Shown: positions 12,124 to 26,966 of the stretch, one piece after another
How positions within the stretch are numbered: the stretch's first letter is position 1
Layout of the letters: every line of letters starts with the position of its first letter
Source of the DNA: Parcubacteria group bacterium
GTDB lineage: Bacteria; Patescibacteriota; Minisyncoccia; Phycocordibacterales; JACNGX01
Length of the DNA stretch: 43,010 nucleotides
Reading direction: 5' to 3'
NCBI GenBank assembly: GCA_014383885.1
Contig: JACNGX010000021.1
Coordinates: 1 to 43,010 of the forward strand
The notes under the pieces: model-generated
Databases searched by the model: none
The model's input: the letters and a program-made list of their open reading frames with translations, nothing else
Told to the model about the DNA's origin: nothing
Program-made: the position numbers and the translations under genes

Positions 12124-13224
12124 TTACCGGTTCATCGGCATCACAAGTGAGAGAAATGATTGATCACCAACTGACTCAATAATGAGTGGTTTATTTTCTC
12201 CTGCAAATGACACAGACACACTATCTCCTGAAAGTGAAGGGAAACTATCGGTAATGTATTTGTAATTCACATTAATAGTAATTAGTTCACCTGATAGTGA
12301 TGCTTGTAATGGTACTCGACTTTCTCCTACATCCGTATTTTTTGTTTCGATGATGTATGTCTTTTCTTTTGGATTCAGTGACATGGTTACTTGTTTAAAT
12401 GTGTTGGAAAACACTATACTCACCTTAAATGCATCGGTGAAATCTTTTTTAAGTACAATAGCAGTTGTTGAATATTCTTTTGGTATAATTTGGCGATAAT
12501 CAGGGAATGACCCATCAATAATGCGGGAAGTCACATACACACCCTCTTTCTCAAAGACAATCTGATGATCATTGAATCGAATATCCACATCCCCACTTAA
12601 TTGCTCGAATATTCTAATAATTTCCAAAGTGTTTTTATGAGGGATAAGTATTCCACCCCAATCATTCACATTTTTATGAGGTATTTTCTTTTCTGCTAAT
12701 CGAAACGAATCAGTTGCAACAAATACCAACATATCATGTTCAGGATACATATACACACTTCCAAGTTCAGGTTTTACATCTGAAAGCGATGAGCTATACA
12801 CCACGCTTTTTAATCCCTCAACAAGTTTTTTTACCGGAAGAGAAAAACTTGTCCCTTGATCAACAACAGGTAGTGAAGGAAATTCTTCCGGAGAAAGGCA
12901 TTTAATAAGTGTATTATTTCCTTGTATTGAAATGGTGAGATTTCCTTCTTTCTCCTCAACTTCAAGAGTACCGTCTCCTGAAATACCTGAAAGAAAACCA
13001 CTGAATACAGATGCTGGCACTGCAACAATACCATCACGATCACTTTTTACTGGAAGCTCTATTTCAACACCAATATCAAGATTGGTTGCGCGAATCATCA
13101 TACGCTTTCCTGAAACCTCAAGAATGATTGATGAGAGAATAGGGAGTGAGAGATTTTTCCCTGTTATTTTCTCCACAAGAGAAATTGTTTCGGAAAGAAG
13201 TTTTTTTGGACATGAACATTTCAT
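12124..13224 (-). CDS. dnaN: DNA polymerase III beta sliding clamp.
   Basis: 366 aa with a three-domain clamp-like organisation. Located immediately downstream of dnaA. Confidence 0.9.
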   Translation of the reverse strand: MKCSCPKKLLSETISLVEKITGKNLSLPILSSIILEVSGKRMMIRATNLDIGVEIELPVKSDRDGIVAVPASVFSGFLSGISGDGTLEVEEKEGNLTISIQGNNTLIKCLSPEEFPSLPVVDQGTSFSLPVKKLVEGLKSVVYSSSLSDVKPELGSVYMYPEHDMLVFVATDSFRLAEKKIPHKNVNDWGGILIPHKNTLEIIRIFEQLSGDVDIRFNDHQIVFEKEGVYVTSRIIDGSFPDYRQIIPKEYSTTAIVLKKDFTDAFKVSIVFSNTFKQVTMSLNPKEKTYIIETKNTDVGESRVPLQASLSGELITINVNYKYITDSFPSLSGDSVSVSFAGENKPLIIESVGDQSFLSLVMPMNR

Positions 13225-13485
13225 ATATGATTATCCCCAAGGGTGTTTTGTATATTATTAAATAAAATTATTATTATTATAAGTACAGTGGAAAAGTGGA
13301 AAGATGAAAATCTTTATACATAGTAAGGATTGAATAGGAATATGTGATGTGTATAAGAATAGTGTATAAAGCAGAAAAGTTTTTATTTGTGTATAAATAA
13401 CAATATCTATTTTCTTTTCCACATACTATTATATGTTTGTACACATAAATCTCCATAGATATTTCCAGATAGTTACCCACATGTT
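13225..13485. other. Candidate oriC region in the dnaA-dnaN intergenic spacer (AT-rich, with DnaA-box-like 9-mers).
   Basis: Five one-mismatch DnaA boxes: 13231-13239 TTATCCcCA, 13348-13356 TGTGtATAA, 13388-13396 TGTGtATAA, 13425-13433 TTtTCCACA, 13473-13481 TTAcCCACA. AT-rich tract at 13251-13290. Confidence 0.55.
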
Positions 13486-14817
13486 TTACACTAGTGATCG
13501 AATTTTTTCCACTTCACTCCGAAGAGTATCATCATCATTTAAATCTCTTTTCATTTTATCACACGAATGCATAACTGTTGTATGATCTCTTCCACCCAGG
13601 TTTTTTCCGATCATTGGGTAAGAAGCACTATAATCCTCTCGTAGGATATACATAACAATTTGTCGTGGCTTCACAATTTCTTTTCGTCTTGTTTTTTCAT
13701 AAATATCTTTTTCAGGAATATCATAGAAGCCAGCCACTATCTTTACTACATCTTTCACAGAGATATTTTTCTTTGGTTTTTCTGTGTTTTTAATAATTCG
13801 TTTTACTTCATTAAGTGTGAGTCCTTTCTCCCCTACTGATGCATGACACATAAGAGTGTTGATAGCTCCTTCAAGTTCTCGGATATTTCCTTCAATAGAA
13901 AGGGCAAGATAATCAATAACATCTTCCGGAACCTCAATACCTCGTGAACGGAGTTTGAGGGTGATAATTGAGCTACGAGCCTCATATTCAGGTTGGTTAA
14001 TATCTACAATCATACCGGCACTAAAACGGGATTTTAGACGCGATTCAAGACCAGGAATGAAGTTGGGGTGCACATCGGATGAGAATATGATCTGCTTATT
14101 GCTATCATAGAGAGCATTAAAGACGTGAAAGAGCTCTTCTTGGGTTTTTTCTTTATTAGAAAGAAATTGAATATCATCCATAATGAGTGTATCAAAGTTA
14201 CGATACTTTTCTTTGAAGACATTTGTTGTGTCATTTTGAAGAGAAGAAATATAGTCAACAAGAAATTTTTCCGATGTGATGTAGAGTACCCGCTTCTTCA
14301 AATCTTTTTTCAAGTGATTACCCACTGACTGGATAAGATGTGTCTTTCCAACTCCCGTTCCTCCGTACACAAAAAGTGGGTTATAGGTAGTGCCTGGATT
14401 TTTGAGAATCGCTTGCGCTGCTGCGTATGCGAGATTATTAAATGATCCAACAATAAAAGAATCAAATGTATAGCGTGGGTTGAGATTACTCTCCTTATCT
14501 ACATATACATCAGCGAGTGGAAGTTCCCCTGCTTTATATTTCTGATTTTTTCTCTCTTCTTCTTTTGGTGCTTTGGCAATAATGTATTCAAGTCCACGTA
14601 CACCGTCGGAGAGTTCACGTAATGATTTCAGAATCATGGTGTGGAATTTTTGAGATAACCACTCTTTCACAAATTCATTCGGCACAGCGACAAACACTGT
14701 TCCTTCATCTTGTTTCGAGATGTATGTATTTCGAAACCATGTACTGAAATTCGCTCGCGAGATTTGCGATTCCACTTCACTAAGTACACTATTCCAGAGT
14801 TGTGAGTTGTCTACCAT
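13486..14817 (-). CDS. dnaA: Chromosomal replication initiator DnaA.
   Basis: AAA+ Walker A GGTGVGKTHL and a C-terminal DNA-binding domain (...TTVMHSCDKM...). The conserved N-terminus MVDNSQLWNSVLSEV suggests the start at 14817 rather than the ORF-track start at 15003. Confidence 0.9.
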   Translation of the reverse strand: MVDNSQLWNSVLSEVESQISRANFSTWFRNTYISKQDEGTVFVAVPNEFVKEWLSQKFHTMILKSLRELSDGVRGLEYIIAKAPKEEERKNQKYKAGELPLADVYVDKESNLNPRYTFDSFIVGSFNNLAYAAAQAILKNPGTTYNPLFVYGGTGVGKTHLIQSVGNHLKKDLKKRVLYITSEKFLVDYISSLQNDTTNVFKEKYRNFDTLIMDDIQFLSNKEKTQEELFHVFNALYDSNKQIIFSSDVHPNFIPGLESRLKSRFSAGMIVDINQPEYEARSSIITLKLRSRGIEVPEDVIDYLALSIEGNIRELEGAINTLMCHASVGEKGLTLNEVKRIIKNTEKPKKNISVKDVVKIVAGFYDIPEKDIYEKTRRKEIVKPRQIVMYILREDYSASYPMIGKNLGGRDHTTVMHSCDKMKRDLNDDDTLRSEVEKIRSLV

Positions 14818-14905
14818 AGAAAGAAAAAAGAATGACGACGAATAAGGTTTGTCTATTATAGTATGAGTGGACACTATGGGGAAACTTGCAAACATTGGAA
14901 AACTC

Positions 14906-14925
14906 TGTTGATAACATGTGGATAA
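14906..14925. promoter_or_regulatory. Tandem DnaA boxes upstream of dnaA: TGTtGATAA-ca-TGTGGATAA (the second is a perfect consensus).
   Basis: Read directly. They lie about 90 nt upstream of dnaA on its coding strand and immediately adjacent to the TACGAA array. Confidence 0.6.
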
Positions 14926-14930
14926 TAAAT

Positions 14931-14961
14931 TACGAATTACGAATCGCGCGAATATACGAAT
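14931..14961 (+). repeat. Full 31-nt motif with a degenerate third unit: TACGAA-t-TACGAA-tcgc-GCGAAT-at-TACGAA.
   Basis: Same 7/10/8 spacing as the other full copies. Confidence 0.75.
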
Positions 14962-15033
14962 ACAACTTTTGTTACAGTACTCAATTTTGTTGTCATCCCG
15001 CACTTAATGTGGGATCTATTTGAGTTTATTACT

Positions 15034-15060
15034 GGATTCCTGGTCAAGCCAGGAATGACA
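15034..15060 (+). repeat. 27-nt hairpin repeat GGATTCCTGGtcaagCCAGGAATGACA.
   Basis: Exact reverse-complement copy at 34833-34859. A related CCAGGAATGACA occurs at 2823-2834. Confidence 0.7.
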
Positions 15061-15104
15061 GATATATGTATTTAGGTAGGTTATTTTCTTAGATTCGTAA
15101 CTGC

Positions 15105-15132
15105 TTGCATTTTAACACCAATACGGTATAGT
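15105..15132 (+). promoter_or_regulatory. rpmH promoter TTGCAT-N16-TATAGT. The ATG lies 9 nt downstream, so the mRNA is probably leaderless.
   Basis: Read directly. Confidence 0.5.
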
Positions 15133-15141
15133 AGTTCCACT

Positions 15142-15276
15142 ATGTCCCAGACGTATAAACCAAAAAATAGAAAACGCAAAACAACACACGGTTTTTTGGT
15201 GCGTAAAGCAACACCAGGGGGTCGTGCAGTGCTTAAGAATCGACGCCGTAAAGGGCGTAGTAAACTTTCCGTGTAA
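15142..15276 (+). CDS. rpmH: 50S ribosomal protein L34.
   Basis: [44 protein letters not shown]. Not in the ORF track because it is under 60 aa. Confidence 0.9.
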
Positions 15277-15336
15277 TCTTTTACATATTTCTTCGGAGAG
15301 CATCCCATACGGGGTGTTTTTCTGTATAATATAGTT

Positions 15337-15678
15337 ATGTTGCCGAAAAATAGACGTATCCCCACACTGTGGTTTAAAGAGCGGTATCGTCGCATCACAA
15401 CACAAAAAAGCCCTCATATATCAATGAGTGTGTTTGAAGCGCATAAAAAAGACTCCCCTACCTGTTTTGCATGTGTGATATCAAAAAAAGGTGGACTCAC
15501 AGCAGTGAAGAGGAATAGTATCCGCCGGCGCGCGTATGCGATTCTTGAAGAATTACTTCCTTCTGTAAAGGGTGGATTGTATTGCACGCTCTCGCTCTCA
15601 AAAGAGGTTGATGGTATGTCGTATGACGAATTGAAAGGACAAATAACAAATCTCTTAAGAAAAAGCAATGTTGTATAG
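15337..15678 (+). CDS. rnpA: RNase P protein component.
   Basis: 113 aa with ...ISKKGGLTAVKRNSIRRRAYAIL..., in the conserved rpmH-rnpA context. Confidence 0.85.
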   Translation: MLPKNRRIPTLWFKERYRRITTQKSPHISMSVFEAHKKDSPTCFACVISKKGGLTAVKRNSIRRRAYAILEELLPSVKGGLYCTLSLSKEVDGMSYDELKGQITNLLRKSNVV

Positions 15679-15682
15679 GTTG

Positions 15683-15728
15683 TGAACATACCAGTGAACA
15701 TACCAAGGTATGTTCACTGGTATGTTCA
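15683..15728. repeat. 46-nt perfect palindrome: two 22-nt arms (TGAACATACCAGTGAACATACC / GGTATGTTCACTGGTATGTTCA) separated by AA.
   Basis: Read directly. It lies between the rnpA stop codon and the yidD start and overlaps yidD's first codons. Confidence 0.8.
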
Positions 15729-15967
15729 TCTCTTCTGTTATTATATTTTTCATCCGTATATATCAAACACTTCTCTCCCCCGAAAAAAGCGTATGGGTGA
15801 AGTGGGGTATTGTGCGTGAGAGAAAGACATGTGTCTTTTACCCCACCTGCTCGGGATACATGATTCTCGCAATAAAAAAATACGGCGTGCGGAAAGGAAT
15901 AAAAAAAGGACTGAATCGCATAAAGCGCTGTATTCCCCAAACTCCCCCATCGGTGGATATGCCATAG
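15710..15967 (+). CDS. yidD: Membrane protein insertion efficiency factor YidD.
   Basis: ...IYQTLLSPEKS...CVFYPTCSGYMILAIKKYG...RCIPQTPPSVD. The start may instead be 15722 (MFISS...). Confidence 0.8.
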   Translation: MFTGMFISSVIIFFIRIYQTLLSPEKSVWVKWGIVRERKTCVFYPTCSGYMILAIKKYGVRKGIKKGLNRIKRCIPQTPPSVDMP

Positions 15968-16167
15968 CTATTTTAAAATGAGAAAAATGAAAAACCCGGA
16001 GCAAGTGCTTCGGGAAAAAGAGTGCCATGATGCCGATATGAGTATCGTGGAAGTGACTTTATTGAAGAAGTACGCGAGGATTTTGAGAAGGAGCGCGTTT
16101 TCTTCGATGCGGTGAAGGTCTGATCTTTTTGTCTTTGCGGCTTTACTTAATGTAAAGTCGCTTTTTC

Positions 16168-16196
16168 TTGCTTTAGAGACTAAAACAGCGTACAAT
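16168..16196 (+). promoter_or_regulatory. yidC promoter TTGCTT-N17-TACAAT, with the ATG 10 nt downstream.
   Basis: Read directly. Confidence 0.45.
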
Positions 16197-16206
16197 AGCT
16201 TGTATT

Positions 16207-16995
16207 ATGATTGGTTTTTTCGAGACAATTATTTATCAACCCCTCTACAACGGTCTCGTATTTTTGGCATATTTTATGCCGTGGGCGGATATTGGCTTGG
16301 CGGTGATTACCCTTACGCTTGTGGTGAAGTTTATTCTTTTTCCTCTGACACATAGCACAACAAAAAGTCAAGTGAAAATGCGTGAGATTGAGCCGGAACT
16401 CAGTAAACTTAAAGAAGATCTCAAAGACGATAAGGAAAAACAAGCGCGTGAGCTTATTGCGCTCTACAATAAGCATGGCATCAATCCGGCGACAGGGTGT
16501 GTGGCACTTATCGTCCAGCTCCCGATTATTCTCGGACTGTATTGGGTGTTTAAGGATATTTCATTTGACCCGACAGCAACCGGTGCGATGATTGAAAACG
16601 GCGTACGCGCCGCGGGCACCTTTTTGAACGAAGCAATTCTCTATCCGGTCACTCCCCGTCCGGAGTATCTTCATACTGAATTTTTGGGATTCATTGATAT
16701 GACCGGTAGGAGTATTCTCCTCGCTGTTCTTGCGGGTATTACGCAATTTTTCCAAATGAAACTCTCTATGCCGGGCGAGAAACCAACGCTACAAAGCACT
16801 GGATCATTCAAAGATGATCTTATGCAAAATATGAAATTTCAGATGCGCTACGTGTTTCCTTTCTTTGTGGTTATTTTTGCCTACACGATTTCTTCAGCGA
16901 TTGCGTTGTATTGGGTGGTGAGCAACCTTTTTGCTATCGGGCATGAATGGCATGTGCGAAGAGAATATGCACAATTGAAGGAAAACAACGAGTAG
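16207..16995 (+). CDS. yidC: Membrane protein insertase YidC/Oxa1 (short Gram-positive type).
   Basis: 262 aa polytopic protein in the rnpA-yidD-yidC context. Confidence 0.85.
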   Translation: MIGFFETIIYQPLYNGLVFLAYFMPWADIGLAVITLTLVVKFILFPLTHSTTKSQVKMREIEPELSKLKEDLKDDKEKQARELIALYNKHGINPATGCVALIVQLPIILGLYWVFKDISFDPTATGAMIENGVRAAGTFLNEAILYPVTPRPEYLHTEFLGFIDMTGRSILLAVLAGITQFFQMKLSMPGEKPTLQSTGSFKDDLMQNMKFQMRYVFPFFVVIFAYTISSAIALYWVVSNLFAIGHEWHVRREYAQLKENNE

Positions 16996-17016
16996 TACCA
17001 ATATCCTGTTTATTGT

Positions 17017-17469
17017 ATGGAATACAGTGAAATTAAAACAATTATTACTAACATCTTGGATGCGATGGGTGCACCATATTCCGATGTGGAAATTGTTGAG
17101 GATGGTGTGGGGACGGTATTTATGATTCGTACCGATGACGCAAAGCATTTGATTGGCTACCGAGGAGCGACGCTCTCGGCATTGAATCACATTGTGAAGC
17201 GTATCACAGAGAAAGATGGGTATGAAAAAGGGACACGATTTTCCATTGATGTGAACGACTATAAGAAGGAAGCAAACGACCAATTGCGTGTACGCGCCAC
17301 CATGCTTGCCGAACGTGTGCGGGCACTCTCTTCGCGCACCGAACTCGAGCCGATGTCTTCTTATGAGCGAATGGTGATCCACACCACGCTTGAGCCCATT
17401 TCCGATATTCATACCGAGTCGATTGGCGAGGGAAAGGAGCGGCGTGTGGTGATTTCATATAAAGGGTAG
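17017..17469 (+). CDS. jag: Jag/KhpB-like RNA-binding protein (KH plus R3H domains).
   Basis: A KH-like segment LIGYRGATLSALNHIV and a C-terminal R3H-like segment. Conserved position after yidC. Confidence 0.75.
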   Translation: MEYSEIKTIITNILDAMGAPYSDVEIVEDGVGTVFMIRTDDAKHLIGYRGATLSALNHIVKRITEKDGYEKGTRFSIDVNDYKKEANDQLRVRATMLAERVRALSSRTELEPMSSYERMVIHTTLEPISDIHTESIGEGKERRVVISYKG

Positions 17470-17507
17470 TAATTGGAAATGAGGAAATAGATTGCGCTCC
17501 GCGCAAC

Positions 17508-17545
17508 GAAAAAGGCGGCACCGGAGGTGCCGCCGTGTGTGTTTT
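17508..17545. terminator. Bidirectional intrinsic terminator.
   Basis: AAAAA GGCGGCACC gga GGTGCCGCC gtgtgtgTTTT. Confidence 0.6.
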
Positions 17546-17560
17546 CCCTAATTTTTAGTC

Positions 17561-18862
17561 TCAGTAATTCACAGTCTCAAATGCATCGGCAACGCGAAGA
17601 ATCCATGGTGTCATATCGCGTTTGTTAGTGAAGAGGAGAAAAGATTCATCTTCACTGAGAACAGGGTTGATGAGATCAATAGCTGTATCATACATATTCG
17701 GATCAACAAGGAAAAAGCCGATAGACTCTTCGGTGTCATAATACCAGATGCTGTCTTCAAAGAATAGTTCTCCTTTGTACCATGTGTCGGGGTATCGTGT
17801 GAAAGGAAGAGAAAATGGTACACCACAGTAGATTCCCTTCCCTTCTGCATCCCAGGTGCATTTCTCAGGAAGTGTATCAAAGAGAAGTGCAGTTTCTTCT
17901 CCATCGGAGAGGATTTTCAGTGTGAGTGTGTTTTCCGAACTTTCAGAGAAAAGTATTTTTGTGCCATCAGGACTTGTGAGCGTGGTAAGACCGCTAACAC
18001 CACTTAAGATTGGATTGAGCGTATTTGAGAAGAGAGAAAGATAATAGCTGTATCCTGGAATTCCCGCTGCAGGCTTTGTGGTGAGATAAATGTAGTCGTT
18101 TTCCGCCCAATCGATAAGCCACTCGGAAAGGGGCGAGGAAAATGCTTCTTTTGGTTCCTCACCGGAAAATGGTACGATAATACCGCGAGAGCCGCTTGTT
18201 GTACGTTCAAGGAGAAAAAGAGAGTCTTGAGTGGGGTTGGTGTCGAAAGCAAGGGTACCAGTGCGGAGGAACTCTGCTCGAGCAAGTCCAATATCACCGC
18301 CCTCTTCTTCCGCTGTGAAAATCGAAATTCCGGTTCCCTCAATAATATCATCGTCATTGAGTGTACGCGCAAAGAATTCCGTGCCGTCAGTATTCCAAAG
18401 CGTGTCATGGATGTGTGGTATGGTTGTATTGGTGATGCGTTCTGCCCCAAGTGTGTCTACAGGGATATCAAAAATATTTCCCGTTGCCTTTTCTATCACA
18501 CGGACAATGAGGATATTCTTTTCTTCCTCGGACCCTTCTGTTGATTGAGGGAGTGTTATAAACGTTGCCCCCGATACGGGCTCAGGGAATACTTGCGAAA
18601 TGAGATCGACGCTCAGTTGTTTTTCGTCGTCCTGTGGTGTTTTGTCAGGAGAGTCTCCATCTCTCTCTTCACTACCAAAGAGGGAGTCGAGCACACCCTC
18701 ACCTTCTGCGCCACTAAAGAGAAAACCAAAGAAGCCATTATCTCCCACCCCCTCAGAAGAGTTGCCACCGCGACCAAAGAGAAATATTCCAACACCAAGG
18801 AGAACGATGAGGAGAATAGTACCTCCCCAGATGAATATGCGTTTTTGCTGAGAACTATTCAT
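17561..18862 (-). CDS. Membrane-anchored hypothetical protein (N-terminal TM, an acidic linker, and a large extracytoplasmic domain).
   Basis: 433-aa ORF. N-terminus IFIWGGTILLIVLLGVGIFLF. First gene of the minus-strand block that contains the T4SS genes. Confidence 0.6.
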   Translation of the reverse strand: MNSSQQKRIFIWGGTILLIVLLGVGIFLFGRGGNSSEGVGDNGFFGFLFSGAEGEGVLDSLFGSEERDGDSPDKTPQDDEKQLSVDLISQVFPEPVSGATFITLPQSTEGSEEEKNILIVRVIEKATGNIFDIPVDTLGAERITNTTIPHIHDTLWNTDGTEFFARTLNDDDIIEGTGISIFTAEEEGGDIGLARAEFLRTGTLAFDTNPTQDSLFLLERTTSGSRGIIVPFSGEEPKEAFSSPLSEWLIDWAENDYIYLTTKPAAGIPGYSYYLSLFSNTLNPILSGVSGLTTLTSPDGTKILFSESSENTLTLKILSDGEETALLFDTLPEKCTWDAEGKGIYCGVPFSLPFTRYPDTWYKGELFFEDSIWYYDTEESIGFFLVDPNMYDTAIDLINPVLSEDESFLLFTNKRDMTPWILRVADAFETVNY

Positions 18863-18871
18863 ACTTATTGA

Positions 18872-19903
18872 TTATTGGAAAAATGTATTTTCGGTGTCTC
18901 CGAACGTAATGGACAATGTTTCTTTTAAGCTCTGTAGCATGCGATCGGTATACGTAACTGAGAGTGAAAGGGCCGTGTTTCCTGTTGTTCCTTCCGGCAC
19001 ATCGATTGCCAAATCACCCGGGTTGTTCCAGTGTGACGAGACATGTCTTCCTCCTACCGACCAGTCGTAGGAAAGAGATGAGCGATTGTGATTGTCTGTG
19101 GAGAAGAAATAGGGCTCAGCACGGATGACAGTTTCTCTTTCTCTAAGGAGGATACCATTGACAAGAGCTTCATTAAAGCGTACACCAAGCGTGGGATGTT
19201 CTTCATAAAATATAATTTCTGGATCGACCTCGGGAAGGTTAATAGATTCACGGGCGCTGAGTGATCCGCCCGGAGATGTGGCGGTGACAGACACGGTTTC
19301 ATTCGGTAGGAGAATATCTTTCATGAGAAGAAGTGTTGAGCGACCGTACCCAGATTGACTTTTTGTGTCGCGATAAAAACCATTACGCTGCCAAGTGTAG
19401 GTGATAGTGTCGGCATCGAGCTTTGTGCCATTTCCCGTTGTAAGGTGTGGAACAGCAATAACTTTTACGTGTGCCTGAGAAGCCGGTAGTGCTTTTCCAC
19501 GGTAAAAAGGCGGTGTGTAAGCATCAATCGCTTCCCAGAGCAAATCGACGCCTCCTCCAGGTGTAAAACGAACAGTTTTGGTAATTGTTTCATTATCCGG
19601 TGAGACGATTGTCGCGGAAATAGTCATGGTGATTCCGGTATTTCCAGCTTCGGTACTGAAGGTGTTGAGGCCTGTTCCTTCAGAACGATAGGCACCATTT
19701 TCATACCACGTAACATATGCGCGATTCATATCAAACGCGAAGCTTGATACTGAAACAGTGATCATCTCACCTGCCGCCGGATATGCCGGCTCAACATCAA
19801 CAGAGACATACGATTCAAGCGCGTGAACATGAGATATCACAGCACAGAGTGAGAGTGTGATACCACATATGAGAACTGACATGTGGAAAATAAAGGATTT
19901 CAT
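18872..19903 (-). CDS. Secreted hypothetical protein.
   Basis: Signal peptide MKSFIFHMSVLICGITLSLCAVISHVHA (start at 19903, 8 nt after the VirB4 stop). The ORF track extends artificially to 20086. Confidence 0.6.
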   Translation of the reverse strand: MKSFIFHMSVLICGITLSLCAVISHVHALESYVSVDVEPAYPAAGEMITVSVSSFAFDMNRAYVTWYENGAYRSEGTGLNTFSTEAGNTGITMTISATIVSPDNETITKTVRFTPGGGVDLLWEAIDAYTPPFYRGKALPASQAHVKVIAVPHLTTGNGTKLDADTITYTWQRNGFYRDTKSQSGYGRSTLLLMKDILLPNETVSVTATSPGGSLSARESINLPEVDPEIIFYEEHPTLGVRFNEALVNGILLRERETVIRAEPYFFSTDNHNRSSLSYDWSVGGRHVSSHWNNPGDLAIDVPEGTTGNTALSLSVTYTDRMLQSLKETLSITFGDTENTFFQ

Positions 19904-19910
19904 AGAACTA

Positions 19911-21776
19911 TTATACCACGCCAGCGATACGGGAGAGTGGATTATCCGGCGTTTCATTCTCACTGCTTTCTTTAAGTGCTTTCTTTGCTTCACGAATCTG
20001 GAGTATTTGTGAGGGGTCCGAGGTAATGATTTGTTCTTCAGTGTAAGAAGCGAGGATTTTAATGGCGACATGCTTGAGTCCTGCAAAGAAGATACCTTCT
20101 CCTACATCGGATTCGAGAAGTAAGAATTTTTCCTCCTCAGTGAGGTTGAATGTTTTTTGGACGGTGTCGATGGCTGTGGGCGATTGTTTCAAGAGAAGCT
20201 GAATTGAAGAGTTGGTGATGATCGGTAAACCATACGGCGACCGGAGGAAATCGGACACGTCTTGGGTGATGGTGGCGACTCCTAGATAGTATTTTCTACC
20301 GCGCTTTGTCATGCCGAAGAGAAATGATGCCGTATCTTCGGATTTCATCATCCACCACGCCTCGTCGATCACAAGAAGGCGTTTTTTCAGCTCGCGACGA
20401 ACGGCATTCCAGATAAAGTGGGTAATGATGTGCATGGCGACGGTTTTAAGTTCGTCTTCCATGTCGCGAACGGAGAAGACCACAAACTTTTTGTTGATAT
20501 TTATGTTGGTTGGACGGTTAATGAATTCCGCCCACGTTCCTTTCGTATATTTTGAAAGACGACTTAAGAGAGATTCCCCCCCTTCCATGCCGGAGAGGAC
20601 CATTTCAAAGTCGGAAAGAAGTGGTGGGACAATTTGTGAGAGATCTGAATCAGGAGTGATGTCTTTGAGTGCATATGTTTCCGTGATAGCACGGTCAATA
20701 ATGGAGTCTTCTTCAGGGGAAAGACCGCCAAGCATGATGCGGAAAAGACCGACGAGTGAAATGGTATTTGCACGGAGGACGTCAGCAGTTGTCTCATCTT
20801 CGCTCGGCATAGGAAGATCGAACGGATTGATATGGTGTGGGGAGCTGAGTGAAATATTGAAATGGCGACCACCTGTAGCCTCTGCCATAAATTCATATTC
20901 ACGTTCAGGGTCAATTACGATTACTTCCGTATCAAACATGAGAGTACGGAGAATTTCAAGCTTGGTGGAGAAGGACTTTCCGGCGCCAGAAGTGGCAAAA
21001 ATGACGGAATTATAGTTTTCCATTGAGAAGCGATCGAAAAGAACAAGACTGTAATTGTGTCGATTGATGCCATAGAGAATGCCGCGGTCGGATGTGAGGT
21101 TGAAGGAAATAAAAGGAAATATGCTTGAAAGCGGTGAAGAATTGAGTTTTGAGTGAATGCCGAGCGAGTCGGATCCGGAAGGAATGACGCTTTTGAACGC
21201 GTCTTCTTGCTGAAAAAGACTTGGCTTGAGATAGACAAGCTTTGATTCAAGAATTGATTTGATTTCCGATTCAATACGATCAAGTTCTTCTTCTGTTTTT
21301 CCGTAGACGGTGATATAGAGACCAACGTCAAAGAGACGCTCTTGCGCCTGTTGAAGCTGATCGCGGAGGTTTTCAAGATTGGCATATGCGGCAGCAAGCT
21401 TCGGGTCACGCACCATGCCACGCTCCTCACGCATCATGATTTGGCTTTCAACCTCAGCAACTTTCTTTTGGAATTTGCGCAAAATAGCCGCGGTGTCCAC
21501 CGGGTGAATATGGATGGAGACGTCGAAGACAGCGTCGAGATTCACAATCGGCGAGAACCAGCTGTCGGCGAGATAACGTGGGTAGGAGATGACGAAGAAT
21601 GTGCGAGCGATACGGTCGCCTAAATTGAGTTCGCGCGGAGTGATTTTGAGCGCCGAAGGAGCGATGACATCTTTTAATTCCAATACTGCCGATTCATATA
21701 TTTCATGTGGTAATACAGGCACCGCCTCCGGGGTGTCTTTTTTCTTCCCTATTCCTAATGTGTTAAGAAGTGACAT
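19911..21776 (-). CDS. virB4: VirB4/TraE/PrgJ-type conjugative T4SS ATPase (core portion).
   Basis: Walker A FATSGAGKSF, Walker B LVIDEAWWMM, and the Gram-positive VirB4 N-terminal signature LGDRIARTFFVISYPRYLADSWFSPIVNLDAVFDVSIHIHPVD. First ATG at 21776. The frame remains open up to 21839. Confidence 0.85.
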   Translation of the reverse strand: MSLLNTLGIGKKKDTPEAVPVLPHEIYESAVLELKDVIAPSALKITPRELNLGDRIARTFFVISYPRYLADSWFSPIVNLDAVFDVSIHIHPVDTAAILRKFQKKVAEVESQIMMREERGMVRDPKLAAAYANLENLRDQLQQAQERLFDVGLYITVYGKTEEELDRIESEIKSILESKLVYLKPSLFQQEDAFKSVIPSGSDSLGIHSKLNSSPLSSIFPFISFNLTSDRGILYGINRHNYSLVLFDRFSMENYNSVIFATSGAGKSFSTKLEILRTLMFDTEVIVIDPEREYEFMAEATGGRHFNISLSSPHHINPFDLPMPSEDETTADVLRANTISLVGLFRIMLGGLSPEEDSIIDRAITETYALKDITPDSDLSQIVPPLLSDFEMVLSGMEGGESLLSRLSKYTKGTWAEFINRPTNININKKFVVFSVRDMEDELKTVAMHIITHFIWNAVRRELKKRLLVIDEAWWMMKSEDTASFLFGMTKRGRKYYLGVATITQDVSDFLRSPYGLPIITNSSIQLLLKQSPTAIDTVQKTFNLTEEEKFLLLESDVGEGIFFAGLKHVAIKILASYTEEQIITSDPSQILQIREAKKALKESSENETPDNPLSRIAGVV

Positions 21777-21780
21777 AGTG

Positions 21781-22431
21781 TTATAGTTGAATCGGCTTAT
21801 CAAGTTCGCCGGGATTAAATATGCGGTAAAAAAGTTCAATCAATTCTTCCGTACCCAGAGGCGATGTGCGGATACCGGTACGGACAAGTCCTTGTTGTAC
21901 GACATAGGCACGCTGTTCAAGCTGGGAGCGATTTACTTCAAATTCATCCTGCTCTTTATCCTCCCCTCTCGAGCGCTTTTTCTTCGTTCCTAAAACATCG
22001 CCAAGAATGCCTGTGTCGGTTGCAATGAACGAAGGGGTGTATGGGACGACGATGAAAAAGTTCTTTGACATGATATTAGTCTGTTCGGTAAATGTTTTAA
22101 TGAAGCGAATGTATTCGCGAATCTGTACTTTTGAGAGGTCGTTTATCTGCTCTTTTTCGCGCCGTTCGAGAAGCGCGACATAGGGGCGAACGTCATATCG
22201 TCGAGATTGGATGTAGATTTGTACCGAGAAGTCAAGCGAGTTGAGAAAGTTTTGAAATTGAATGAGAATAGATTGCTGTTCGTCGGGAGACTTAAGCGAC
22301 ATATTCACCGATGATGTCATGAGTACCATCTTGAGCGAACCGTCTTCCATCACCGCCACACCGTCTCGTACCTCTTTGATAGGCACGAATCGTTGTGATG
22401 CTTGTGATTTTTCTTTGTTTGATGTTGGCAT
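21781..22431 (-). CDS. VirB4 N-terminal-extension-like protein. It is a separate ORF; VirB4 may be split or frameshifted here.
   Basis: FVPIKEVRDGVAVMEDGSLKMVLMTSSVNMSLKSPDEQQSILIQFQNFLNSLDFSVQIYIQS resembles the N-terminal extension of long Gram-positive VirB4 proteins. Its stop codon lies 4 nt from the virB4 ATG. The two frames overlap across the A6 run at 21828-21833. Confidence 0.55.
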   Translation of the reverse strand: MPTSNKEKSQASQRFVPIKEVRDGVAVMEDGSLKMVLMTSSVNMSLKSPDEQQSILIQFQNFLNSLDFSVQIYIQSRRYDVRPYVALLERREKEQINDLSKVQIREYIRFIKTFTEQTNIMSKNFFIVVPYTPSFIATDTGILGDVLGTKKKRSRGEDKEQDEFEVNRSQLEQRAYVVQQGLVRTGIRTSPLGTEELIELFYRIFNPGELDKPIQL

Positions 22432-22446
22432 GGTGCTAATAATAGC

Positions 22447-22866
22447 TTACTGAACGTTCTTTTGCACATCCAAACTCCAGGCAATATCTTTGAGTTTGCT
22501 CTGTGAGAGTGATGGCACGTGCATCGTCTCCGGTAAGGGGGCAGGTTCCTGAACAGCGGCTTTTTTCTGAGCCTCTTTCTTTTTCCATTCCTGGCTCCAA
22601 ATGTAGAGCTTTGCGCGCGTTACATATAAAAAAGCGGCCTCCAAAACATCAATAAAAGGTCGCTTGTGTATTTTCAGAAACGCAAGCGCAATACCCAAGC
22701 TCGCAATGGGAAGAATGAGGAGTATGGCGAAGAAAAAAGGAAGTGATGCATACAAGACATATGAGATACCTGCAGCACCGGCCAAATAGAGAAATTGGCG
22801 AAACGAGAGAGCTCCGGCAAAGACCTTATCTTCAACTTCAATGAATTGTGGTGTTTGGAATTGCAT
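22447..22866 (-). CDS. PrgI/VirB3-like small two-TM T4SS protein.
   Basis: N-terminus MQFQTPQFIEVEDKVFAGALSFRQFLYLAGAAG, followed by two hydrophobic helices. Confidence 0.65.
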   Translation of the reverse strand: MQFQTPQFIEVEDKVFAGALSFRQFLYLAGAAGISYVLYASLPFFFAILLILPIASLGIALAFLKIHKRPFIDVLEAAFLYVTRAKLYIWSQEWKKKEAQKKAAVQEPAPLPETMHVPSLSQSKLKDIAWSLDVQKNVQ

Positions 22867-22939
22867 AGTTGAGTCGCAAGCTTTGAGCGCTGGTATCTAC
22901 AATACTAGCCGGCGCGCTACCGCGCGCCTCACTCCTCTT

Positions 22940-23599
22940 TTACTCCACCGGTTCACGATACGGATCAGGCGGAGTTTCCGGAGACGGTGAGGGAGCGGTG
23001 TTGGATTTTGTTTCCTCGCTATGCGCTTCTCTGAGAGTTGTTTCTTGGGTTATTTTTTTCTCAATAATACTTTGGTGAGTAGTCTCCTGTTTCTCTGCTC
23101 CCATATACTCTTGTTTTTGGGGAGCTCCAGGTAGGGATACTTCCTTTTTCGGTCGGGTCTCTTCACGTTCTGGTATGGGAAGAGGATGTTCAATTTCTCG
23201 TAAAATTTCATCGCGTGTCGGTAAGTGCATTGTCATTTCCTCATCTTTTTCTTCTCCCGCGACATTTTCTTTGGGGGCACTGAGAGATGCACGCATTGGC
23301 TCAAGAATCTCAGTATTCACATCAGCGAGAATTGCTTCAGCTGCTTCTTCGGAAACACCAAGCTCTTCAGAAAGCGTCGGGAGATATGACTCCCTTGGAA
23401 TAAGTCCAAGTATCACAAAGACGGTTATGTCATTGAGTGTAGCCAACTGATCGATGTGGAGATTGTGGTGATTTCCGATACGACGAAGCGCCTTCCCTGT
23501 TTCTTGAGATTCAAGAACTTCTTGTATTGCTTTAGGAAGAGCAGTGAAGCGATCCTCCATCTGTTGTTGTGTGAATTGTTGCATAGATACCAAAGACAA
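22940..23599 (-). CDS. Hypothetical bitopic protein (one TM helix and an acidic, low-complexity C-terminus).
   Basis: ORF within the T4SS block. TM segment ITVFVILGLI. Confidence 0.5.
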   Translation of the reverse strand: MSLVSMQQFTQQQMEDRFTALPKAIQEVLESQETGKALRRIGNHHNLHIDQLATLNDITVFVILGLIPRESYLPTLSEELGVSEEAAEAILADVNTEILEPMRASLSAPKENVAGEEKDEEMTMHLPTRDEILREIEHPLPIPEREETRPKKEVSLPGAPQKQEYMGAEKQETTHQSIIEKKITQETTLREAHSEETKSNTAPSPSPETPPDPYREPVE

Positions 23600-23605
23600 T
23601 AATGA

Positions 23606-26149
23606 TTATGTATTAGTATTTTTTTCTGTCGCTTTTGTCGTGTTTTTTGCTACGTTGGAAATATCTTCACGCGCGTATCTGTTTTGCTTTTCAGCGAGTC
23701 TTGTGTATTCCTTCAACTCTCCCATTTTCTTTTCTTGCCGCGAGGAAAGCTTACTGAGTGTTTCAAAGTTTGAAAGGCTTTGCGCGTGCTTTGATTCAAG
23801 ACTCGCGAGTTCTTGATTCTGTGCGCTTGATCGGTTGGGAACAGCAGAGAGCGCTCCGTTTTGTTGGACAAGTTTATTTTCTCGCTTTTCTTCAAGTTTC
23901 ATGAGCACGGCGATTTTACCAAGCGTTGTATTGAGCTGATCCATCTGTGTTTGAGCTTGTTGGGGTGTGCCATATGTTTTCTTCATAGAGTCAATCCTTG
24001 CTTTATCACGAGCTTTCTCTGCTTCGACATTTGCTCGCTTCTCTCTCAGTTCGTCACCCTTTTTAATCGCCGAACCAGTCTTTTGAGCGGCTTGCGCTTT
24101 GGCTATTGTTTTCGCCGATGCTACTCCTCTAGCGGCACGATCCAACGCTTGCTTCTTTGCCTCCTTCTCAACGTCTCTCATCTCTTCCTGTGCGGCGTCA
24201 TAATCCTCATGTCCTTGCGAAACACGCTTCAATGATTGGTAATACGGATTATTTGTCAGTGCCTCATTTGTGGTACCCGTTACTCCACTTTCTTTCAAGA
24301 GACGCTCTTCATATCGTGTATGTGCTTTTCGCGCCGCAGCTGCTTTTGTTTCATCTTTATCATTAAGGTCGCCCATCTTCTTTCTGAGCTCATCTTGTTT
24401 TTTATCTTCTCGCTCTACAGTACCGGCAAATCCTCCTTCGCCGCCCTTCACTCCCCATGCGCCGACAGATTTCGTGACCCCACCCATGCCAACAGCCCCG
24501 GCAAGACCACCTGCTTTACCCATTGCCATGCCGCCGAGCTTTGTGTTTCGCGCGTCAAAACTCCCCTTTTCCATGCCTTCCATAGCGCGCAAGCGGAGGC
24601 GATCAAGTTTCCCTCCGGAAGCAAGGCGCTGGCGCCGTGTCATGCCATCGGAGCCGACACGATTTAAATTCTTCATTGCGCCGGCACCCAAGACTCCGCG
24701 CCCGAGAAGCGCTGTGCCACCTGTCGCCACAGCAGCACCAAGCCCAACTGCCGCTCCGGCAATACCGGCGATTTTTTTGCCAATATCAAGCGATACTCCC
24801 CCAATTGAATCACACATTTTCTTGGTAATATTTTTTGCGTAGAAGAGGATGGCGGTGAGTACGGTGAATTTCAATAGGACGATGATAAATGTCTCAAAGA
24901 AATCTTTGTTATTTCCGAAATTATTCCAGGTATTGGCCCCTTCCAAAAATTGCAAGGTAAACCACAAGAGGAAGAGAAAGACGGTAATACAAAATGATTT
25001 GCTCACGAGCTCTCCCCAGAAATTTTTTCTTACGTATGCTGCGGATTGTGGCAAAATCATACCAACAAAGGCAAGCGGTGAAACAGCCATAAGAAGCCAC
25101 AGAATGGCAACACGAGTGAGAAAGAGAAACGATGTTGTGAAAAGTATCCACGCAAGCACACCCATAAGGGAGGCGCTCAGAAGAAAATAGATTATAAGAT
25201 TGAAATGTTGCGTTTCCGGAGGAACTACCTGGTCGGTCCATAGTTTCAACCAGGTGCCTCCTTTCGCTTTCACCAGCCCATTTTCAAGAGATATCATTTC
25301 ATTGATACTGGTGTAGTGCAAGAAAGCCCCCGACACCCCCTTTACATCACCTTCTCCAATCCATTGTTCGATAAACGTTCCTTTCAGTACTGAATTGCCC
25401 GATATAAGCTTTTCACCATCTTTCACATTTTGGGTTTTGTGTACTTCAAAGTCGTTGTAGAAAAACATAGCAAACATGTTTCCAGCATCCACAATGACAC
25501 GAGTGATGAAAAAACTAAAATTAATCAAAAGGGCAACGATAATGAGTTTGGAAAGAAGATCTTTGGCTGTATTGTTTCTAACACGTAAAATAGTAGCAAT
25601 TGCAACCCACAGCAATATAAAAATAAATGCCATGTTTGCCAAGTCGCGGACATTTTCCCATACTGTTTTTATAAACTCCTGATCAATAAGCCCTCTACTG
25701 ATAGAAAGAAGCAAGACTATGTCAAAGAAGTTGCCGATTGCTCCCAGAATAAAGGATGCCGGCATGTAGAGGAGATAATATGTCCCCACCGCGAGACATC
25801 CGGTGAAGCCAGGCGCCCCCTTCATGAGATTACATTTCATGTAATCGGTGATGTCGGGTTTATTATCTGCGCTAGATTTTTGTTTATCATAATAGTCTTG
25901 AGCAGCGCCATCCCCAGGACTGCCCGGCGAGCTTGTTGAGCGCACTGGGCGTTTCGGTACCTTTTGTGATATGCTGATATCGCGTATTGATGGTTGAGCA
26001 TACGCTTTGTTTTGCGAAAGAGAAGGGAGGTTTTTTTGAGAATTAGGTTGTGAAAAAGAAAATGGAGCAAGCAAAAGAAATGCAATAATAAAAGACACGA
26101 CTTTCGTTTGGATTTTCTTTTTTGTATGGGGGGTGAACTCTAATCTCAT
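23606..26149 (-). CDS. VirB6/TrbL-like polytopic membrane protein with a C-terminal Gly-rich plus coiled-coil extension of about 380 aa.
   Basis: Signal-like N-terminus, at least 8 hydrophobic helices, then a GAAVGLGAAVATGGTALLGRGVLGAGA... segment and a charged coiled-coil tail. The start at 26149 (MRLEF) is preferred because the upstream ATG at 26185 lies inside a terminator hairpin. Confidence 0.6.
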   Translation of the reverse strand: MRLEFTPHTKKKIQTKVVSFIIAFLLLAPFSFSQPNSQKNLPSLSQNKAYAQPSIRDISISQKVPKRPVRSTSSPGSPGDGAAQDYYDKQKSSADNKPDITDYMKCNLMKGAPGFTGCLAVGTYYLLYMPASFILGAIGNFFDIVLLLSISRGLIDQEFIKTVWENVRDLANMAFIFILLWVAIATILRVRNNTAKDLLSKLIIVALLINFSFFITRVIVDAGNMFAMFFYNDFEVHKTQNVKDGEKLISGNSVLKGTFIEQWIGEGDVKGVSGAFLHYTSINEMISLENGLVKAKGGTWLKLWTDQVVPPETQHFNLIIYFLLSASLMGVLAWILFTTSFLFLTRVAILWLLMAVSPLAFVGMILPQSAAYVRKNFWGELVSKSFCITVFLFLLWFTLQFLEGANTWNNFGNNKDFFETFIIVLLKFTVLTAILFYAKNITKKMCDSIGGVSLDIGKKIAGIAGAAVGLGAAVATGGTALLGRGVLGAGAMKNLNRVGSDGMTRRQRLASGGKLDRLRLRAMEGMEKGSFDARNTKLGGMAMGKAGGLAGAVGMGGVTKSVGAWGVKGGEGGFAGTVEREDKKQDELRKKMGDLNDKDETKAAAARKAHTRYEERLLKESGVTGTTNEALTNNPYYQSLKRVSQGHEDYDAAQEEMRDVEKEAKKQALDRAARGVASAKTIAKAQAAQKTGSAIKKGDELREKRANVEAEKARDKARIDSMKKTYGTPQQAQTQMDQLNTTLGKIAVLMKLEEKRENKLVQQNGALSAVPNRSSAQNQELASLESKHAQSLSNFETLSKLSSRQEKKMGELKEYTRLAEKQNRYAREDISNVAKNTTKATEKNTNT

Positions 26150-26164
26150 AGCACTATTATAACA

Positions 26165-26198
26165 GAAAAAACACGCCTTCTGCATAGGTGAAGGCGTG
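26165..26198 (-). terminator. Intrinsic terminator after the lipoprotein gene.
   Basis: CACGCCTTC (9-nt loop) GAAGGCGTG, followed on the minus strand by TTTTTT. Confidence 0.5.
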
Positions 26199-26208
26199 TG
26201 TATAGCAA

Positions 26209-26778
26209 TTACCTCTTTTGGGAGTTAATAAACTCCCTAGTCTCGTCGGGGAGGAACATAAGTCTCCCCTTTATTGCCGGGATGAAATCTCCCGGCCATG
26301 CACCTGTATAGATCGCCACGAGGCAGCGATCTATAAGTGTGTATTTTAGCGCCGCATACTTATCATTCGGCGCTATATATATTTTATGCAGATTCTCTCT
26401 TGCCTTAGTAAGAGAGAATCTGCCATTCTTGTTGTGCTCCGCTGTGCGGAGCATCTTAAAAATGTATTCACTCCACCCGTCCAACTCTTCATACCCCACA
26501 ACGGAGTATGAAGAGGTGAGCGTCTCGTGCGAGATGCTCGCTACGGTAATCTCCTCACGCACTTTAAGTGCGCGAGTGATGTACTTTAGATGCTCTTCCC
26601 ATTCGGGAATAGCGGTTTGTACCTCAAACATGGCGATTACTTCTTCGCCATATTTCTCTTCCAGCGTCGGTTCCGGCGTAAGTATCGGACCGACGGGATT
26701 TTTCTCGTCGTTTATGCACCCCGTCAGAAAGAACGGGATGGTGATGGCGAGCAACAAAAGTATTTTTCTCATTTTCAT
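26209..26778 (-). CDS. Lipoprotein (lipobox LTGC).
   Basis: MKMRKILLLLAITIPFFLTGCINDEK. The ORF track starts further upstream at 26931, but that extension covers the promoter. Confidence 0.7.
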   Translation of the reverse strand: MKMRKILLLLAITIPFFLTGCINDEKNPVGPILTPEPTLEEKYGEEVIAMFEVQTAIPEWEEHLKYITRALKVREEITVASISHETLTSSYSVVGYEELDGWSEYIFKMLRTAEHNKNGRFSLTKARENLHKIYIAPNDKYAALKYTLIDRCLVAIYTGAWPGDFIPAIKGRLMFLPDETREFINSQKR

Positions 26779-26857
26779 TTTTTTCTCCGTTTTGAGGCGG
26801 CGGCGTGAGCCGCCGCCTGGTTTATTTGTACAAGTACAAGATAATTTATTCTGCTTA

Positions 26858-26886
26858 TATATTAAACCAAAAACCTGTTTTGTCAA
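26858..26886 (-). promoter_or_regulatory. Promoter TTGACA-N17-AATATA (minus strand) for the lipoprotein/T4SS operon, with a GGCGGCGGC-tcac-GCCGCCGCC hairpin in the leader.
   Basis: The reverse complement reads cctATTGACAaaacaggtttttggtttAATATA. A perfect DnaA box TGTGGATAA lies at 26905-26913, just upstream of the -35. Confidence 0.45.
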
Positions 26887-26930
26887 TAGGATGTTTTGAG
26901 AGGGTGTGGATAACTTTGTCCTCAAAAACA

Positions 26931-26966
26931 CTAAAAACGCCCTTTTCAGGGCGTTTTTAGTGTTTT
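26931..26966. terminator. Bidirectional intrinsic terminator.
   Basis: AAAAACGCCC ttttca GGGCGTTTTT. Confidence 0.6.

Follow-up and report, generated by a model that had tools for sequence, protein, structure and literature searches.

The type IV secretion system (T4SS) component reported as most abundant in the Patescibacteria is TrsD, with 2,272 homologues, 1,664 of them beside virB4; it was described as remotely homologous to the VirB4 N-terminus (PMC12102498, Microb Genom 2025). The trsD copy of Ca. Southlakia epibionticum ML1 was given as essential, and the T4SS cluster was often present near dnaA/dnaN (PMC12102498). This was the only literature found to link TrsD to the VirB4 N-terminus. 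In our study, we examined a chromosomal type IV secretion cluster of a Parcubacteria group bacterium (contig JACNGX010000021.1; the whole stretch of 43,010 nucleotides (nt) analysed is called the window), in which a gene encoding a TrsD-like protein of 216 amino acids (aa) is followed by a virB4 gene encoding an ATPase of 621 aa. A run of six thymines (T6, or A6 on the plus strand) is present near the 3′ end of the first gene (Table 1).

The locus resembled the Patescibacteria TrsD systems (PMC12102498, including ML1) in containing a stand-alone protein of about 210 aa, remotely homologous to the VirB4 N-terminus and encoded beside virB4 and a PrgI/VirB3 homologue, and in the location of the chromosomal cluster close to dnaA/dnaN. 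Nothing substantial was found to differ; only the 4-nt spacer between the two genes and the T6 codon choice were particular to this strain. A small separate protein before the VirB4 ATPase is also found in Gram-positive plasmid systems, where TrsD (pGO1/pSK41) or TraD (pIP501) lies upstream of TrsE/TraE (VirB4). However, the 216-aa protein and its relatives were remote from these (NF041427; 20–41 bits against a cutoff of 200), the locus was chromosomal, and no relaxase was seen among the open reading frames (ORFs) examined. As regards the long VirB4 proteins (CD1110, NF045971; the VirB4 of a Mycoplasma integrative and conjugative element, NF045975; VirB4/CagE, TIGR00929; TrwK of R388), the two proteins were collinear with the whole, and the fold predicted for the 216-aa protein matched TrwK chains, whereas the N-terminal ~180 residues formed a separate polypeptide here and were fused to VirB4 in 1 of the best 150 representatives.

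We found that the locus very probably carries two genes, each intact and translated on its own, that belong to the Patescibacteria T4SS cluster and encode a TrsD-like protein and VirB4. Both genes are intact, their separation is conserved among relatives, and the homology of the two products to VirB4 is complementary. The two-gene TrsD-virB4 arrangement was already described for Patescibacteria (PMC12102498). The look of a split gene beside a homopolymer, though resembling an assembly error or recoding, is the normal architecture of Patescibacteria secretion clusters. Since the two-gene architecture is normal throughout the phylum, annotation pipelines should neither merge nor flag the TrsD-like and virB4 genes.

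Two separate genes in the window and in its relatives

The original prediction, made from the DNA letters, was that VirB4 is encoded here as two ORFs which a single-base change in the homopolymer could fuse. Its coordinates, the overlapping open frames and the A6 run all held when the sequence was re-checked. The virB4 frame and the TrsD-like frame overlap over 59 nt, and a TTG at 21839 begins a mechanical ORF of 642 aa in the virB4 frame. Deletion of one base in the run gave a single ORF of 839 aa (about 840 aa had been predicted) reading ...ELIELFTAYLIPANLISRFNYNTMSLLNTLG..., with the junction as foreseen; the junction peptide expected from the fused product is ELIELFTAYLIPANL. The run and the frame overlap together are not beyond chance expectation. 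The window (G+C content 45.8%) contained 109 homopolymer runs of at least 6 bases (2.5 per kilobase), 20 of which were inside the secretion cluster, and the coincidence is unremarkable because ~13% of all 59-nt stretches in the window hold such a run. Any adjacent out-of-frame gene pair with a short spacer is fusible on paper by one insertion or deletion (indel).

A sequence search of 5.8 billion proteins returned 5913 TrsD-like homologues, and the best 120 of them were all 205–229 aa long and all carried PF26593. When 1.84 billion cluster representatives (50% identity) were searched with a profile, 3160 matches were obtained. Among the best 150 of these, 110 were shorter than 270 aa, 39 were 270–443 aa long and one, P0203, was a TrsD-VirB4 fusion.

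P0203 is a metagenomic representative of 797 aa containing the TrsD-like part at residues 4–214 and VirB4 at residues 225–797, in frame and with a short Gly-rich linker between them. This putative natural fusion is rare and may be a sequencing artefact. The proteins of 270–443 aa (P0144, P0167, P0186, P0197, and 35 others) contained 60–230 extra residues, mostly C-terminal; they were considered as truncated fusions and rejected as such, the extra sequence being devoid of any VirB4 match.

The species survey covered 80 representative genomes of Yonath-, Kaiser-, Adler-, Nomura-, Taylor-, Campbell-, and Vogelbacteria and of Paceibacterota. A separate virB4 ORF was present downstream of the TrsD-like stop in 79 of the 80 species loci. 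In the sole other locus, L006 (CAZTTV010000081.1, 2793 nt), the 958 nt that follow the TrsD-like gene gave no VirB4 match; this locus may have another arrangement or a long spacer. The frame of virB4 relative to the TrsD-like gene was 0, +1 and +2 in 20, 36 and 23 of the 79 loci, respectively. The distance from the TrsD-like stop to the virB4 ATG, approximate since the start was taken as the ATG nearest to the aligned first residue, was at most 9 nt in 58 of the 79 loci, five of these being ATGA overlaps, and ranged from −4 to 496 nt. The split is old, being common to relatives across the Paceibacteria and to the staphylococcal and enterococcal TrsD/TraD plasmid systems, and it extends through the phylum regardless of the T6 run. 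The original prediction had named a comparison with related genomes, fused versus split, as a check; the comparison returned two separate genes with their own conserved ends, which is the part on relatives of the outcome that it had set down as speaking against itself. For the other part, reads confirming A6, the junction found unchanged in 4 other assemblies and the invariant residues encoded past the run serve as a substitute.

The four closest relatives (92, 88, 82, and 79% identity) contained spacers of 190, 53, 230, and 21 nt, respectively, with stops in every frame. The spacer turns over quickly, and the 4 nt of the window reflect local compaction of an element that is variable elsewhere. 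The 4 nt (21777-21780) stand against 190 nt in the 92%-identical relative; the spacers of relatives were located at L085:3152-3341, L087:3155-3207, and L088:3131-3360. The spacer of L087 (53 nt) contained a perfect hairpin of 12 base pairs (GGGTGCGGCAGC / GCTGCCGCACCC).

Complementary homology to canonical VirB4

The length of 216 aa fits the range of stand-alone PF26593 proteins (~200–230 aa), and PF26593 was precomputed for the identical protein P0001. When the 216-aa ORF was scanned against a local copy of Pfam, PF26593 was not returned and only a chance-level CTSRT match, below the cutoff, was found, so the PF26593 assignment rests on the precomputed annotation. Among the NCBIfam models, VirB4_plasma was matched by the 216-aa protein at positions 97–233 of 894 (E 7e-11) and by 36 of 36 relatives, and conju_CD1110 was matched at positions 4–118 of 752, with 34 of the 36 relatives matching (family range 2–118). 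Nine of the 36 TrsD-like relatives matched TIGR00929 VirB4_CagE at positions 4–178 of 792. The TrsD model NF041427 was matched at positions ~11–142 of 201 by 33 of the 36, the best E-value being 1.3e-10; the 216-aa protein is a remote homologue of the TrsD/TraD subfamily and not a curated member.

The AlphaFold2 model of the protein (m9206685333cf) showed a mean predicted local distance difference test score of 75.7, and the top 14 matches in a Foldseek search of the PDB with this model were all TrwK/VirB4 chains (R388), with probabilities of 0.96–1.0 and a template modelling score of ~0.5. The family profile of the TrsD-like proteins gave nothing significant against PDB sequences; VirB4 was found by the fold search only. 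As a free-standing protein, the 216-aa product is homologous to the initial ~180 residues of canonical VirB4.

The 621-aa protein matched NCBIfam conju_CD1110 with 373 bits (cutoff 325), its residues 31–570 lying on positions 184–732, and Pfam P-loop_TraG with 90.9 bits (cutoff 25.8). Its residues 77–553 lay on VirB4_CagE positions 262–724. The match to the VirB4 C-terminal domain in PDB 4AG5 had an E-value of 9e-41, residues 256–551 aligned with TrwK 446–734, and a Walker A-like motif, SGAGKS, was visible in the translation. The TrsD-like and 621-aa proteins are two collinear parts of a single canonical VirB4, because they map to consecutive, non-overlapping stretches of three VirB4 models. 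The original prediction, which took the 216-aa ORF for the N-terminal part of long VirB4, was correct as to homology (VirB4_plasma, CD1110, CagE, and Foldseek) and incorrect as to the role of the homopolymer; ‘VirB4 in two ORFs’ is a fair description in the evolutionary sense.

The best of the other explanations, itself improbable, is that the 216-aa protein is a paralogous duplicate of an N-terminal domain which the 621-aa VirB4 already contains. The Pfam name ‘TraC-like’ would fit such a duplicate, as would a weak TraC_F_IV match at residues 114–179 of the 621-aa protein. However, neither BLASTP nor a profile-profile comparison by hhalign (probability 0.1%) detected similarity between the TrsD-like family and residues 1–240 of the VirB4 family; on these two results an internal duplication was rejected. 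The consecutive placement on the three VirB4 models also argues against it.

That consecutive mapping supports TrsD as a detached N-terminal module of VirB4, and the TrsD-like protein is reasonably likely to be such a module. Its assembly with the VirB4 ATPase and the PrgI/VirB3-like membrane protein would be non-covalent. The downstream gene encodes the remainder of VirB4, with its own N-terminal domain and the P-loop ATPase. The very short spacers may lead to translational coupling and to roughly matched amounts of the two proteins.

The T6 run and the reading frames

In the alignment of 36 homologues (60–92% identity), the nucleotides of the run encode the conserved Leu-Phe-Tyr residues, of which L200 and Y202 were invariant and F201 was at least 90% conserved. 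Past the run, the upstream frame's residues Y202, F205, N206, P207, K212, and P213 were invariant or nearly so, and all homologues terminated 2–10 residues beyond the KP motif (KPIQL here). Both proteins are under strong purifying selection, the mean column identity being 67% in the alignment of TrsD-like proteins and 79% in that of the VirB4 N-terminus. The VirB4 N-terminus MSLL[NDE]TLGI was conserved from the ATG onward, with MSLL[D/E]TLGI in the four closest relatives. The upstream extension of the virB4 frame is judged to be non-coding, because the equivalent frame of the closest relatives, with their spacers of 21–230 nt, contains stops.

The length of the T-run at the Leu-Phe-Tyr codons was 1, 2, 3, 4, and 6 in 2, 40, 7, 20, and 3 of 72 loci, respectively, T2 being the commonest; the four closest relatives contained T4, T4, T2, and T4. 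The codons of the closest relatives were CTC TTT TAC, CTC TTT TAT, and TTA TTC TAC, and CTC TTC TAC was also found among relatives. The T6 run is a synonymous Leu-Phe-Tyr codon choice, and not an error or a recoding site.

Regulated production of some fused VirB4, by programmed +1 frameshifting or by slippage of transcription at the T6/U6 run, is very improbable. The frames do overlap, and a P-site tRNA-Phe could re-pair in +1 at CUU UUU UAC. The overlapping frames with a homopolymeric stretch also recall prfB (+1, CUU UGA) and dnaX (−1, A AAA AAG). In contrast to these, the locus had no conserved slippery motif, pause codon, stimulator, frame relation or trans-frame product: T6 was present in only 3 of the 72 loci, the two genes lay in the same frame with an intervening stop in 20 of the 79 loci and in the other shifted frame in 23, and the trans-frame peptide was unconserved, the spacers of close relatives containing stops in all frames. 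The A-site UAC is neither a stop nor a rare codon, and a Shine-Dalgarno (SD)-like stimulator was not found. Six bases is also below the run length usual for efficient transcriptional slippage, which counts against slippage. The proposal of a programmed frameshift in the original prediction was thus not borne out. A weaker form, in which low-level +1 slippage at CUU UUU UAC yields a little covalent TrsD-VirB4 as a strain-specific accident or fine-tuning, is equally improbable. It is conceivable because only in this strain does a U6 run coincide with a 4-nt spacer and an overlap free of stops, and the fused protein could be viable because natural fused forms such as P0203 exist.

Even less probable is an indel in the homopolymer, the true genome having T5 and one VirB4 of ~839 aa. 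Homopolymers are classic indel sites, one base fewer gives the uninterrupted ORF, and fused TrsD-VirB4 does exist, rarely (P0203). However, the T5 reading exchanges the invariant tail YRIFNPGELDKPIQL for TAYLIPANLISRFNYNT, which is conserved nowhere; conservation stayed in the called frame after the run, and the alternative frame was unconserved. The junction of 101 nt was identical in 4 other assemblies, each of a different sample (ENA and Logan), the identical 216-aa protein was present on 9 contigs, and all 79 relatives were split, so a sequencing or assembly error, the first of the causes originally offered, was discarded. That a once-fused virB4 was recently split and pseudogenised in this lineage was also offered there and is just as remote: the two proteins jointly cover canonical VirB4, but the split is old and phylum-wide, including the plasmid systems, both proteins are conserved with their own termini, and neither a close genome with a fused gene nor an elevated ratio of nonsynonymous to synonymous substitution (dN/dS) was seen.

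Several points weigh against two separate genes for a TrsD-like protein and VirB4 as we describe them. The 216-aa protein scored 20.7 bits (E 3e-4) and its best relative 41.5 bits on the TrsD model NF041427, against the cutoff of 200, and the TrsD-family label rests on PF26593 and remote homology. The Foldseek E-values were modest (2e-3 to 0.1), with the aligned range on TrwK not reported. The A6 length in the present assembly has its sole support in the agreement between assemblies and in protein conservation. The association of the TrsD-like, PrgI-like, and VirB4 proteins and their translational coupling are what we infer.

The secretion cluster and its surroundings

The secretion cluster spans 17561-26185, on the minus strand. 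The PrgI-like gene heads a conserved trio, PrgI, TrsD-like, and VirB4, and its position was kept in all close relatives; the same gene order was found in the loci L001–L004 and L085–L089. The ORF of 859 aa upstream had no Pfam or NCBIfam match.

Table 1. Features of the TrsD-virB4 region in the window.
Feature	Coordinates	Strand	Evidence or remark
PrgI/VirB3-like small membrane protein, 139 aa	22447..22866	-	Pfam PF12666 PrgI, 36.9 bits against a cutoff of 27
TrsD-like / ‘TraC-like’ protein, 216 aa	22431..21781	-	PF26593 (precomputed), NCBIfam matches, Foldseek
Homopolymer T6 in the sense strand (A6 on the + strand)	21828-21833	-	Within CTT TTT TAC (L200 F201 Y202) of the TrsD-like gene
Conserved TrsD-like C-terminal tail RIFNPGELDKPIQL + TAA	21781..21827	-	Upstream frame, 3′ of the T6 run
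TAA stop of the TrsD-like ORF	21783-21781	-	
Spacer CACT, 4 nt, TrsD-like stop to virB4 ATG	21780-21777	-	
Open upstream extension of the virB4 frame (TTG..NFFTAYLIPANLISRFNYNT)	21777..21839	-	Judged non-coding in that frame
VirB4-family ATPase, short monoderm/Patescibacteria type, 621 aa	19911..21776	-	ATG 21776-21774
ORF of 859 aa, conserved upstream neighbour in the cluster	23606..26185	-	Large ORF at the equivalent position in relatives

An SD-like motif at −5 to −15 was found at 0 of the 10 gene starts examined (13224-26931), virB4 included, and the genome seems to be independent of SD-led initiation. The missing SD motif before virB4 is uninformative because none of the 10 starts has one. 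No tRNA was found in a tRNA scan of the window.

The genes dnaA (15003..13486) and dnaN (13224..12124), both on the minus strand, lie ~2.5–5 kilobases from the secretion cluster. The cluster therefore adjoins the probable replication origin, which matches the report for Paceibacteria (PMC12102498).

A mechanical ORF of 404 aa (18872-20086, minus strand), opening at a TTG, shares 176 nt with the 3′ end of virB4. On identical contigs, gene callers place its start instead at the ATG at 19903 (343 aa), 7 nt past the virB4 stop. The 404-aa ORF and the next one (433 aa, 18862..17561) had no family match, yet both were conserved in the cluster. A terminator-like hairpin (AAAAACGCCCTGAAAAGGGCGTTTTT) was present at ~26932-26960 on the minus strand, immediately upstream of the GTG start of an ORF of 240 aa at 26931. 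The start of the 240-aa ORF, or the operon boundary, may differ from the mechanical ORF call.

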